DNA of 64,000 bases. Source: an uncultured bacterium (GTDB taxonomy: Bacteria > Patescibacteriota > Minisyncoccia > Phycocordibacterales > GWA1-40-21). Position numbers and translations under genes: made by a program. The stretch spans positions 47,984 through 111,983 of the forward strand of contig CAWJAN010000004.1 in NCBI GenBank assembly GCA_963840885.1, written 5' to 3'. This document shows positions 14,527-15,423 of this stretch, one piece after another; the first letter of the stretch is position 1; the number at the start of each line of letters is the position of its first letter. Under the pieces are notes generated by a model. It was given only the letters and a program-made list of their open reading frames with translations. It ran no database searches and was not told the DNA's origin.

Positions 14527-15423
14527 TTAATTCTTCGTTCCTATTATATTTATCGATTTGGTTATTATCGGAAGTATGTCGTTGTAAAAATTAAGGCTGT
14601 CGAGATCCTGGAGCTTGAACCATTTCGCATCATCAAGCCCGCCGCTTTCGCCAAGCTTCAGATCTTTAAGGTCGGCGCTGGCCAAAAAATATGTGACCTG
14701 TTTCCTTATCTTTCCAAGATCGGGATTATTGGCTACATATTCGTTCATCAGAAGCTCCTGTTCAGGATTTATGTCTATTCCTATCTCTTCTTTGACTTTC
14801 CTTTTCACTCCGGCATTAAGGTCTTCGCCTTCATTTATCTTTCCTTTGGAAAGAGTCCATCTGCCGAAAACATCGTGGACCAAAGCGAAATAAATGACAT
14901 CATCTTTTATGGAATAAACCACGGCTCCGGCCAATTTTTGTATCGGCATCTGATCGAACGGAATGTTCTTGTTGTTCTTTTTTGAAGTCTCATCCTTTCC
15001 CGGTTCTCCGAGTTCTTTGTAGACCGTGCCAAGCACTCCGTTTACGAAGCTTCCGCTTTTCTCTCCGCCATAGATCTTAGCGAGCTCAATCGCCTCGTTT
15101 ATCGCGACTTTTGCCGGAACTTCCTTCCTATCGGAAAATAAAAGCTCGTAAAGGCCTATACGCAATATATTCCTGTCCATTATAGAGATCTTTTCGAGAG
15201 GCCAGTCTGGAGCAGCTTTTGTGATTATGCTGTCGAGATCGGCTTTTTTGTCTATGATCCCCTTAAGAAGATTTTCCGAAAAAATCCTTTCGGAATCCCC
15301 GTCACCAAACTCTTTCCTGTCGCGCGAAAGGGCTTCCAAAGCTTCTTCCCTGGAAAGATTCCTAAAATCCCACTCAAAAGCGGATTGAAGCACTATTCCC
15401 CTTGCAAGGTGCCTTGAAGACAT
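14527..15423 (-). CDS. NusB-family domain fused to a C-terminal Nudix hydrolase
   Basis: Residues ~1-150 match NusB ([11 protein letters not shown].., [27 protein letters not shown]). Residues ~165-298 contain the Nudix box [30 protein letters not shown] (GX5EX7REUXEEXGU). Confidence 0.7.
   Translation of the reverse strand: [298 protein letters not shown]

Follow-up and report, generated by a model that had tools for sequence, protein, structure and literature searches.

What would an antitermination factor do with a Nudix domain at its C-terminus? The question is raised by a gene in the 64-kb stretch of DNA analysed here (hereafter the window), for which a preliminary description had read a NusB domain joined to a complete Nudix box, next to rnc and rpmF, and had suggested, with RppH named among the Nudix enzymes, a role in targeted RNA 5'-end or nucleotide processing that might be tied to rRNA transcription. 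The gene, its domains and its immediate surroundings are as follows.

13801..14508, minus strand: rnc, encoding RNase III (Pfam Ribonuclease_3 and dsrm), the downstream partner
14527..15423, minus strand: nusB::nudix fusion gene (ORF list; Pfam NusB and NUDIX above the gathering score; TIGR01951 above its cut-off; AF2)
14530..14934, minus strand: Nudix-fold domain, aa 164-298, of predicted ApnA-hydrolase type (Pfam NUDIX, Foldseek, profile against PDB)
14776..14844, minus strand: degenerate Nudix box, aa 194-216 (direct sequence reading, NUDT2 alignment, family box counts)
14935..15003, minus strand: inter-domain linker, aa 141-163, net basic (pLDDT, conservation, charge)
15004..15423, minus strand: NusB domain, aa 1-140, seven helices (profiles, PDB sequence matches, residue roles from PMC3177189)
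15483..15517, no strand assigned: G+C-rich palindromic hairpin in the interval between rpmF and the fusion (terminator scan and sequence)
15522..15737, minus strand: rpmF, encoding ribosomal protein L32 (Pfam Ribosomal_L32p), the upstream neighbour

The gene is a single unbroken ORF in the ORF list, with an ATG start and 298 amino acids ahead of its stop codon, and the AF2 model of the whole fusion has a mean pLDDT of 91.2. Both halves pass curated cut-offs within this uninterrupted frame, in which the peptides quoted by the preliminary description were also found, and the claimed fusion is upheld; the claimed neighbours were likewise confirmed, both flanking the gene on the same (minus) strand, with rnc beginning 18 nt past the stop codon of nusB::nudix. 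The hairpin on the rpmF side is predicted to be terminator-like, T-runs flanking it in either strand reading. The linker has a mean net charge of +1.3 and the lowest conservation among the three protein segments, and its residues 141-149 are predicted to be disordered (pLDDT <50). Met159, a conserved residue at the domain boundary, was considered as an internal start and rejected, being without a Shine-Dalgarno-like sequence upstream and unconserved in the wider family.

Relatives of the fusion were found in at least 337 species-level genomes of the Minisyncoccota ('Paceibacterota', Parcubacteria-type CPR). The survey of relatives for fused against separate genes that the preliminary description had suggested returned the unbroken fusion throughout the best matches: all of the best 80 of the 337 species-genome loci encode a two-domain protein of ~298 amino acids, and each of the best 120 protein clusters carries NusB and Nudix. 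At the 50% identity level there are ~58 full-length fusion clusters, reaching down to 33% identity, and no split version was found among the relatives. One apparent stand-alone Nudix cluster (P0139) was rejected as such: it lies on a 1-kb contig and represents the fusion ORF, either frameshifted upstream or called from an internal start. In ~79 of the 80 best loci the genes follow the order rpmF, nusB::nudix, rnc (rnc adjoining the fusion in 79/80 and rpmF lying upstream in 76/80), and fusions at 32-38% identity keep the same synteny; the gap between the fusion and rnc has a median of 42 nt, with the two genes overlapping in some loci. Among stand-alone NusB proteins, the nearest relatives (44-47% identity) have neither a Nudix domain nor an rnc neighbour, whereas the fusion has both; rpmF is also found 5' of stand-alone nusB in related lineages. 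That a frameshift or an assembly error joined two separate genes is practically impossible, being refuted by the continuous ORF and conserved linker across hundreds of genomes and metagenomes of varied source, each assembled independently. The fusion is real and ancient, and has been passed down in a fixed order between rpmF and rnc.

The Pfam NusB profile PF01029, one of two with which the preliminary description had proposed to examine the halves, matches amino acids 7-136 (E=1.1e-32; 113.7 bits against a cut-off of 23.1) and is covered from its position 3 to its last, 133, and TIGR01951, the NCBIfam nusB equivalog, gives 124.4 bits against a cut-off of 88.35, the N-terminus thus passing NusB profiles. 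Seven helices make up this half in the AF2 model, with pLDDT mostly >90 and a Foldseek TM of 0.83 to M. tuberculosis NusB (1eyv). Its sequence matches in the PDB include 1tzt (E=1.2e-21), 3r2c, and 3d3b, covering NusB of T. maritima, Aquifex, and E. coli, as well as the NusB chains of NusB-NusE-BoxA and rrnTAC entries. An Arg-rich N-terminus is kept, and K122 corresponds to Aquifex K118. At the NusE interface, F16 aligns with Aquifex Y16, a conservative Tyr-to-Phe replacement that the close clade keeps in 95% or more of its members. F16 is taken to be the equivalent of E. coli Y18, the nusB5 site at the NusE interface. F126, which is invariant in 52 diverse fusions, aligns with Aquifex F122 (E. 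coli F122), the helix-7 residue that stacks on U8 of BoxA and whose F122D substitution abolishes the binding of BoxA by NusB (PMC3177189). The best reading is that the fusion is the housekeeping NusB of its lineage with a Nudix module attached.

The tie to rRNA transcription claimed for the fusion survives in part. The locking of the fusion to rnc and rpmF across the family makes a link to rRNA biogenesis plausible, and the assembled rrnTAC was reported to increase co-transcriptional RNase III processing in E. coli (bioRxiv 10.64898/2026.03.17.712431); the case for an RppH-like 5'-end role is weak, as set out below. An rRNA gene or leader BoxA of the lineage was also sought, and neither the 64-kb window nor any of 89 related loci contains an rRNA gene.

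As an observation in its own right, 16 of 78 related loci have a BoxA-like element 13-20 nt 5' of the fusion gene, in which G2, C5, U6, and U8 are kept, and the candidate BoxA sequence is UGUUCUUUAAC. Upstream of the window's own fusion gene there is no such element, and window-wide matches to the motif all fall inside coding regions. The element seen in some lineages is a candidate CPR BoxA, and its position before the gene hints at autoregulation by NusB.

The C-terminal half also matches its proposed profile, PF00293 (Pfam NUDIX), over amino acids 186-278 (E=5.9e-12; 46.2 bits against a cut-off of 21.1), and adopts an alpha/beta/alpha fold in the AF2 model, whose best PDB matches are without exception Nudix proteins. 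The top Foldseek match is Aquifex aq_158 (3i7u, TM 0.89), and the TM values to NUDT2-type ApnA hydrolases are 0.89, 0.85, and 0.79. When a profile built from the Nudix halves was compared with the PDB, aq_158 again came first (3i7u, E=5.3e-25), with further matches to 4ilq (5.5e-17), 1vc8 (3e-15), 3u53 (5e-15), and 1kt9 (2.8e-14); the ranking runs from aq_158 through CT771, Ndx1, and NUDT2 to the C. elegans Ap4A hydrolase. Nudix domains of the Dcp2 decapping type are matched by the same profile (E ~5e-11), and those of NrtR and AraR are among the structural and profile matches. The domain is acidic, with a net charge of -5 in the window protein and a family mean of -5.7 (pI ~5.3), and NUDT2, Ndx1, and CT771 are likewise acidic. 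On these profile and model comparisons, the Nudix half groups with the small-molecule diadenosine-polyphosphate (ApnA) hydrolases and not with RppH, an RppH identity being ruled out by NCBIfam scores far under cut-off (21.2 bits against 118 for the RppH equivalog NF001936); TIGR02705, the YtkD-type model, gave no match to the fusion. The AF2 model contains no defined inter-domain contact (pTM 0.57) and therefore gives no structural hint of allostery. A stand-alone Nudix gene of the window (15805-16398), sporadically present in related loci, was rejected as a paralogue or source of the fused domain, BLASTP similarity being restricted to the Nudix helix (E=6e-4).

The "complete Nudix box" of the preliminary description does not hold for this protein. 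The box starts at G194 and reads G-x5-E-x7-R-K-V-K-E-E-I-G-I, which departs from the consensus GX5EX7REUXEEXGU in that the Glu of the 'RE' pair is a Lys (E209K; codon AAA at 14797-14799), at the position of human NUDT2 E58. K209 is no sequencing slip, since the same GERKEEG box is common to 12 of 121 close clusters; a canonical box is present in 58 of the 121, even at ≥68% identity. Position 209 is Glu in 50 of 134 fusions and is more variable than 70% of Nudix-domain positions. The catalytic core as a whole is intact in about one third of the fusions (46/134) and has two or more changes in 54/134, and parsimony on a quick NJ tree counts at least 19 independent switches of core state across the 134. 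Because K209 replaces the Glu here and only 50/134 members have Glu at that position, the Nudix half is regarded as derived from the ApnA family and not as a standard member of it. With Lys substituted for the 'RE' Glu, the window protein is predicted to show little canonical hydrolysis or none, while intact-box members of the family may have a catalytic role. The metal-binding 'EE' is largely retained in the close clade (E212 in 73/79, E213 in 77/79), from which it follows that the fusion may support metal-dependent chemistry with an alternative base.

A different picture is given by the residues equivalent to the ligand pocket, which were mapped by sequence alignment to NUDT2-type enzymes and not by coordinates: K193 corresponds to NUDT2 K42, Y229 to Y82, K241 to K89, and Y280 to F128. 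The roles of such residues, a P1-phosphate Lys (K42) and an adenine-stacking aromatic pair (Y82 in a loop and F128 towards the C-terminus), are described for the P. falciparum and human Ap4A hydrolases (PMC4734340). Across the 134 fusions, K193 is kept in 130, Y229 in 123 (with Phe in 6 more), K241 in 120, and Y280 in 130; in the 54 fusions whose core has changed at two or more positions, the figures are 51, 46 (plus 5 Phe), 47, and 51, respectively. The most conserved positions of the Nudix half are Y280, W189, K193, W268, and Y245, among which W189, Y245, and W268 may belong to the core of the fold and not to the ligand site. The dN/dS in the Nudix half comes to 0.10 for intact lineages and 0.07 for eroded ones, equal to that of the NusB half, these values being approximate because dS (~1.3-1.6) is near saturation, and mean pairwise identity is 0.66 for the Nudix half against 0.69 for the NusB half. 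Purifying selection is strong on both halves, and equally so. As judged from the alignments, the catalytic residues of the Nudix box drift freely, while the equivalents of the P1-phosphate and adenine-sandwich residues stay conserved.

The reading tentatively favoured here is that the protein may well be a housekeeping NusB carrying a nucleotide-binding Nudix module in which hydrolysis is accessory, the ligand and the effect being what we infer. The NusB half, together with NusE, would bind BoxA on the nascent rRNA leader and help to build the rRNA antitermination complex; as the E. coli complex also promotes co-transcriptional RNase III cleavage, we propose that this accounts for the linkage to rnc. 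The conserved job of the Nudix half would be to bind, and not to hydrolyse, an adenine nucleotide polyphosphate, for which the candidates are alarmones of the Ap4A/ApnA type produced by aminoacyl-tRNA synthetases, or the pppA- or Np4-capped 5' end of the leader, which resembles them chemically. Such binding would, it is proposed, make the Nudix half a sensor or an anchor that tunes the function of NusB. Only members with an intact box would still hydrolyse, as an accessory activity inherited from the ancestor, and the evolutionary logic would be the same as that of NrtR, which joins a Nudix effector domain to a nucleic-acid-binding one.

It has further been considered, as an improbable proposal, that the fusion is a ligand-gated factor of rRNA antitermination and processing, whose Nudix domain, frequently inactive as a catalyst, senses Ap4A-type dinucleoside polyphosphates or grips the pppA- or Np4-capped 5' end of the leader. 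By way of NusB, it would then tune the assembly of the complex and RNase III processing. If true, this would be a direct and previously undescribed link from alarmone or 5'-end chemistry to ribosome synthesis in CPR bacteria.

An active enzyme is the alternative closest to the preliminary description, and we consider it unlikely. BoxA-bound NusB would place the Nudix domain by the 5' end of the leader, where its removal of pyrophosphate or of an Np4/NAD-type cap would open the leader, once cut by RNase III, to degradation or processing. RsmB, with its NusB-like domain, offers a precedent for bringing an enzyme to rRNA, and RsmB models weakly match the N-terminal half of the fusion; the linkage to rnc, the match to Dcp2, the canonical box in about one third of the family, and the mostly kept E212 and E213 of the close clade point the same way. 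The RppH of E. coli is reported to remove Np4 caps (PMC8833179, PMC7044304). A function dependent on catalysis should, however, keep the box invariant, yet two or more core changes have accumulated in 54 of the 134 fusions although the domain is under purifying selection. The score of the fusion lies far below the RppH equivalog cut-off, the window protein carries E209K, and the domain, acidic by net charge, shows no obvious basic RNA-binding character on that measure. With the RppH models unmatched, the 'RE' Glu absent and the core intact in only 46 fusions, the case for an RppH-like function is weak.

Erosion of the box in a domain under strong purifying selection would also be expected of a non-enzymatic, ligand-independent scaffold, in which the Nudix fold serves as a protein or RNAP contact that stabilises the antitermination complex and replaces a missing factor such as SuhB. 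SuhB, an inositol monophosphatase, acts in E. coli as the subunit that stabilises the rrnTAC (PMC6614801; bioRxiv 2026.03.17.712431), and the gene inventory of the 64-kb window holds no other Nus factor, SuhB, RppH, or ApaH; the lack of a SuhB-like gene within the window counts only weakly for a scaffold. Against it, the best-conserved residues outside the core are the equivalents of the ApnA phosphate-binding Lys and the adenine-stacking aromatics, neither of which a pure scaffold needs, and we hold this explanation to be distinctly unlikely.

Gene fusions are common in streamlined genomes, and the two halves may conceivably have been joined incidentally, as a 'Rosetta-stone' fusion of a housekeeping Ap4A hydrolase with nusB in a reduced genome, the halves acting independently and the Nudix domain clearing ApnA. 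The flexible linker, the lack of a predicted inter-domain interface in the AF2 model, and the typical small, acidic, ApnA-hydrolase-like character of the Nudix half are in keeping with such an origin. A stand-alone clearing enzyme should nevertheless keep its box, which has here eroded repeatedly without loss or relaxation of the domain, and the fusion is stable across very deep divergence with no split version found; an incidental fusion is accordingly judged very unlikely.

The favoured reading, a housekeeping NusB with a predicted nucleotide-binding module, bears on how NusB itself is viewed. NusB is regarded as an invariant stand-alone housekeeping factor, whereas a species-rich branch of the CPR uses one with an extra module, which has been hidden because annotation pipelines name the protein plain 'NusB'; a search of the literature on a NusB-Nudix fusion, or on NusB in Patescibacteria, returned nothing relevant. 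Should the module sense ApnA alarmones or RNA 5'-end chemistry, it would show how bacteria with reduced genomes match the making of ribosomes to their physiology. Irrespective of the ligand, the family would provide a clean natural series from enzyme domain to binding domain, in which the repeated core switches leave the pocket conserved while the catalytic residues vary.

Among known systems, characterised NusB proteins are stand-alone and of ~140 amino acids, whereas the window protein adds a 135-aa C-terminal Nudix domain just after helix 7, which belongs to the BoxA-binding surface (PMC3177189). With the NUDT2-type ApnA hydrolases (Aquifex aq_158, T. thermophilus Ndx1, C. trachomatis CT771, human NUDT2, and the C. 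elegans Ap4A hydrolase), the Nudix half shares a 'W-T-x-P/S-K-G' motif, the pocket equivalents, small size, and acidity; those enzymes are stand-alone with an intact box, while the box of the fusion is degenerate in the window protein and in roughly two out of three family members. The likeness to NrtR and AraR lies in a Nudix domain fused to a nucleic-acid-binding domain and in a family that mixes intact and perturbed signatures, NrtR with a perturbed Nudix signature having been found to lose catalysis and retain effector binding (PMC2330246). NrtR joins an ADP-ribose-type Nudix domain to a C-terminal winged-helix DNA-binding domain and represses promoters, whereas the fusion has an N-terminal NusB and a predicted ApnA-type Nudix domain; as the partner domain is non-homologous, NrtR serves as an analogy and does not imply membership.

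RppH and Dcp2 share the Nudix fold, but the fusion is far below the RppH cut-off and the window protein is without the catalytic Glu. SuhB of the E. coli rrnTAC is comparable as an enzyme-fold subunit of a NusB-containing complex, differing in that it is a separate dimer of inositol-monophosphatase fold with no homology to the fusion. To our knowledge, the only widespread architecture that combines a NusB fold with an enzyme fold in ribosome biogenesis is that of RsmB/Sun, a NusB-like N-terminal domain followed by a 16S rRNA m5C methyltransferase. Its partner is a SAM methyltransferase, and its N-terminal domain is not the NusB of the cell, whereas that of the fusion scores as a nusB equivalog.

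The nusB::nudix gene is a real and ancient fusion, in which residues 7-136 match the entire Pfam NusB profile (E=1.1e-32) and residues 186-278 match Pfam NUDIX (E=5.9e-12), both above the gathering thresholds. At 124.4 bits the protein also clears the 88.35 cut-off of TIGR01951, NCBI's model for nusB equivalogs. Profile searches of the two halves thus bear out the preliminary description of NusB joined to Nudix in a single ORF, and the survey of fused versus separate genes that it had proposed returned the fused form throughout: the best 120 protein clusters from a 5.8-billion-protein collection were all ~298 aa with both Pfam domains, and, among 337 relatives found by scanning one genome per GTDB species, all of the best 80 were full-length at 59-80% identity. 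An assembly or frameshift artefact was excluded on the strength of these two sets. Searched exhaustively, the representatives clustered at 50% identity extended the family to ~58 full-length fusion clusters, with identity down to 33%. The cluster P0139, considered as a stand-alone Nudix, was rejected: it is the fusion ORF on a 1-kb contig, with either a frameshift upstream or a start called internally.

All named clusters among the best 120 are entitled [quoted passage not shown]; the name Candidatus Paceibacterota is synonymous with Minisyncoccota, the NCBI phylum (ex-Parcubacteria) within the CPR. Several MAGs with a Paceibacteria-type locus are titled Nanoarchaeota or Saccharibacteria ("uncultured Candidatus Saccharibacteria" for locus L017 and many others); as they share synteny with Paceibacterota loci and are 60-78% identical to them in protein sequence, these are evidently wrong or automatic bin labels. 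Precomputed Pfam annotations already show this domain pair in thousands of database proteins, named plain "NusB"; full-text literature searches found no published description of the architecture.

The gene adjoins rnc and rpmF as previously described, both on the same strand:

13801-14508, minus strand, rnc (RNase III), 18 nt downstream of the fusion
14527-15423, minus strand, nusB::nudix fusion, one uninterrupted 298-aa frame in the ORF list
15483-15517, between rpmF and the fusion, G+C-rich palindromic hairpin GAAAAGCCGGTTTTCATGAATGAAACCGGCTTTTT with T-runs on reading either strand
15522-15737, minus strand, rpmF (L32), upstream flank of the fusion
15805-16398, minus strand, second stand-alone Nudix gene (197 aa, Pfam NUDIX 30.7 bits), between rnhB and rpmF

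The order rpmF, nusB::nudix, rnc was found in ~79 of the best 80 loci, usually with smc after rnc and with rnhB and dnaE on the opposite side; smc, the second Nudix gene and rnhB lie farther out in the window. This core is retained even in fusions of merely 32-38% identity, where rnc overlaps the fusion or begins at most 10 nt from it, the median gap in related loci being 42 nt. The nearest true stand-alone NusB proteins (44-47% identity to the N-terminal half) are likewise encoded after rpmF, but lack both the Nudix domain and an rnc behind. The hairpin may act as a terminator, bidirectional or leaky, splitting rpmF from a nusB::nudix-rnc unit. The second Nudix gene, found at that position in just a few related loci, carries R-K-V-R-E-E instead of R-E and a non-canonical G-to-E spacing, its likeness to the fused domain being confined to the Nudix helix.

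The remainder of the window holds ordinary CPR housekeeping genes, and its 64-kb gene inventory includes neither a further Nus factor nor SuhB or RppH. A MYG1/UPF0160-family exonuclease homologue (43672-44571, minus strand, E=2.7e-63) adjoins obg GTPase and yceG, in a neighbourhood centred on RNA and ribosome functions, where rnr (8288-10249), trmD and rpsP also lie. The phenylalanyl-tRNA synthetase beta chain PheT (27794-30154, minus strand, 786 aa) has an NlpC/P60 peptidase-family match at residues 361-472 (E=2.2e-18), an insertion between the B3_4 and B5 domains that is unusual for PheT. Elsewhere, the 577-aa protein P0266 (related locus L084, 3605-5338) combines NusB, Nudix and a long N-terminal extension in a non-syntenic context of NB-ARC/AAA ATPase, DDE transposase and HEPN_Swt1 genes; this could reflect relocation or recruitment of a copy, or a faulty assembly.

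The N-terminal half is, by all sequence and model tests applied, a genuine NusB, as had been claimed. It matched T. maritima 1tzt (E=1.2e-21) and also Aquifex 3r2c and E. coli 3d3b and 6tqn among PDB sequences, and the AF2 model of the fusion (mean pLDDT 91.2) predicts the seven-helix fold with high confidence. F16 aligns with Aquifex Y16, an aromatic residue of the NusE interface, and is taken here as the counterpart of E. coli NusB Y18; K122 aligns with Aquifex K118. F126, invariant in 52 of 52 diverse fusions, aligns with NusB F122, which stacks on BoxA U8 and whose F122D substitution abolishes BoxA binding (PMC3177189). In the same model, residues 141-149 of the linker are disordered and the pTM is 0.57, which points to two independently folded domains without a predicted fixed interface.

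Judged by profile and modelled fold, the Nudix half is derived from diadenosine polyphosphate (ApnA) hydrolases. Searched against PDB sequences, both singly and as a profile, it groups with the NUDT2 type, the top profile match being Aquifex aq_158 "Ap4A hydrolase" (end to end, E=5.3e-25), followed by CT771, Ndx1 (Ap6A hydrolase), human NUDT2 and the C. elegans Ap4A hydrolase, and Foldseek gave TM scores of 0.89 to 3i7u, 0.85 to Ndx1 and 0.79 to 1ktg. Like NUDT2, Ndx1 and CT771, it is acidic, with a net charge of -5 (family mean -5.7), and it follows a basic linker.

The Nudix box, earlier called complete, is not so: from G194 it reads G-x5-E-x7-R-K-V-K-E-E-I-G-I, with K209 (codon AAA, 14797-14799) where the Glu of "RE" is expected. 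Across 79 species-genome orthologues the catalytic positions vary (E200: E58/V11/I6; R208: R58/A10/N5; position 209: E37/K29/A9), and the blocks VHDxFGxWTLSK, NEYxA and LNFYxDILPI, plus one of 17 letters, are invariant outside the box. Of 134 fusions, 46 keep the core E/R/E/E/E intact, 34 have it changed once and 54 at least twice, with fully eroded boxes such as GGDGNEN and DLQINKA, and a neighbour-joining tree, as a quick approximation, gives at least 19 switches of box state. Even among the 121 clusters at least 68% identical to the window protein, only 58 are canonical and 12 share its own GERKEEG. By column entropy, position 209 is more variable than 70% of domain positions and E200 and R208 lie near the median, the lowest values falling at Y280, W189, K193, W268, Y245, G166, D184, T190 and Y229. 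The two halves are equally conserved overall (mean pairwise identity 0.66 for Nudix versus 0.69 for NusB), and the Nudix-half dN/dS, a quick estimate that is approximate because dS is high, is ~0.10 for intact-box and ~0.07 for eroded-box pairs, values that the NusB half shares, with an omega of 0.015 for the L025/L026 pair (box GVAKEEG). The catalytic positions are relaxed while the domain is under strong purifying selection.

Alignment of the family profile to human NUDT2 places K193 at Lys42, responsible for P1 phosphate binding, Y229 at Tyr82, which contacts that phosphate and stacks on adenine, Y280 at Phe128, the second adenine-stacking residue, and D282 at Glu130, a hydrogen-bond partner of the adenine amino group (roles from PMC4734340); K241 corresponds to Lys89, and position 209 to Glu58, the residue swapped in the crystallised E58A mutant (title of PDB 4ijx). 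In the 54 fusions with at least two core changes, K193 is kept in 51, K241 in 47 and Y280 in 51, and position 229 is Tyr in 46 and Phe in 5. With these residues kept in eroded members, the family looks to retain an apparent adenine-nucleotide polyphosphate pocket as its catalytic machinery drifts.

The fusion reads as a NusB whose lineage-specific Nudix module is probably regulatory. The tethered RNA 5'-end hydrolase of the preliminary description is possible for members with an intact box, but it is unlikely for the family, since it leaves the repeated box erosion and the constrained domain unexplained and the Nudix half falls far under the cut-offs of the RppH equivalog models. If the domain were a ligand-free scaffold on the model of SuhB, the erosion would be accounted for but not the retained pocket residues, and this reading is slightly less probable still. 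About as improbable is the incidental fusion of a housekeeping Ap4A hydrolase, which would need an intact box.

Ahead of nusB::nudix, 13-20 nt upstream of the start codon, a BoxA-like element (G[CT]TCTT[TC][ACG]A) occurs in 16 of 78 loci against ~0.25 expected by chance, the loci being phylogenetically clustered; examples are L045 (TGTTCTTTAACTAAA-ATG), L058 (AGCTCTTTAACTACATC-ATG) and L041/L052 (GTTCTTTAATCAAA-ATG), along with L055, L056 and L072. It preserves G2, C5, U6 and U8, the nucleotides important in BoxA (PMC3177189), which suggests autoregulation by NusB/NusE and makes the element a candidate for the BoxA sequence of CPR bacteria. The element is absent upstream of the window's own fusion gene, and no rRNA leader lies within the 64-kb window or 89 related loci. 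The window's close clade (L004, L007-L012, L016, L017) has another conserved motif in the last ~40 nt before the start codon, approximately CAGTAAT..A.AAGCTTAAAAAGCTAAGCAAAA.AT-ATG with a short AGCT...AGCT palindrome, which the window itself lacks.

On the preferred reading of the Nudix module, its conserved job would, with moderate confidence, be the binding of an adenine nucleotide polyphosphate, hydrolysis being an ancestral accessory activity retained in some members and the NusB half presumably performing its normal BoxA/NusE role. Candidate ligands would be Ap4A-type alarmones or a pppA/Np4-capped 5' end of the leader; Np4 caps, and Nudix enzymes that remove them, are documented in E. 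coli (PMC7044304 and PMC8833179). A demonstration that a ligand gates rRNA antitermination would make the system far more interesting. The fixed linkage to rnc makes sense because, in E. coli, the assembled NusB-containing rRNA transcription antitermination complex strongly raises co-transcriptional RNase III processing, by keeping the leader near RNA polymerase (bioRxiv 10.64898/2026.03.17.712431). Mechanistically, the NrtR family comes closest: its Nudix domain is joined to a DNA-binding domain and shows the same mix of intact and perturbed signatures, the perturbed forms having lost catalysis and kept the response to ADP-ribose (PMC2330246).
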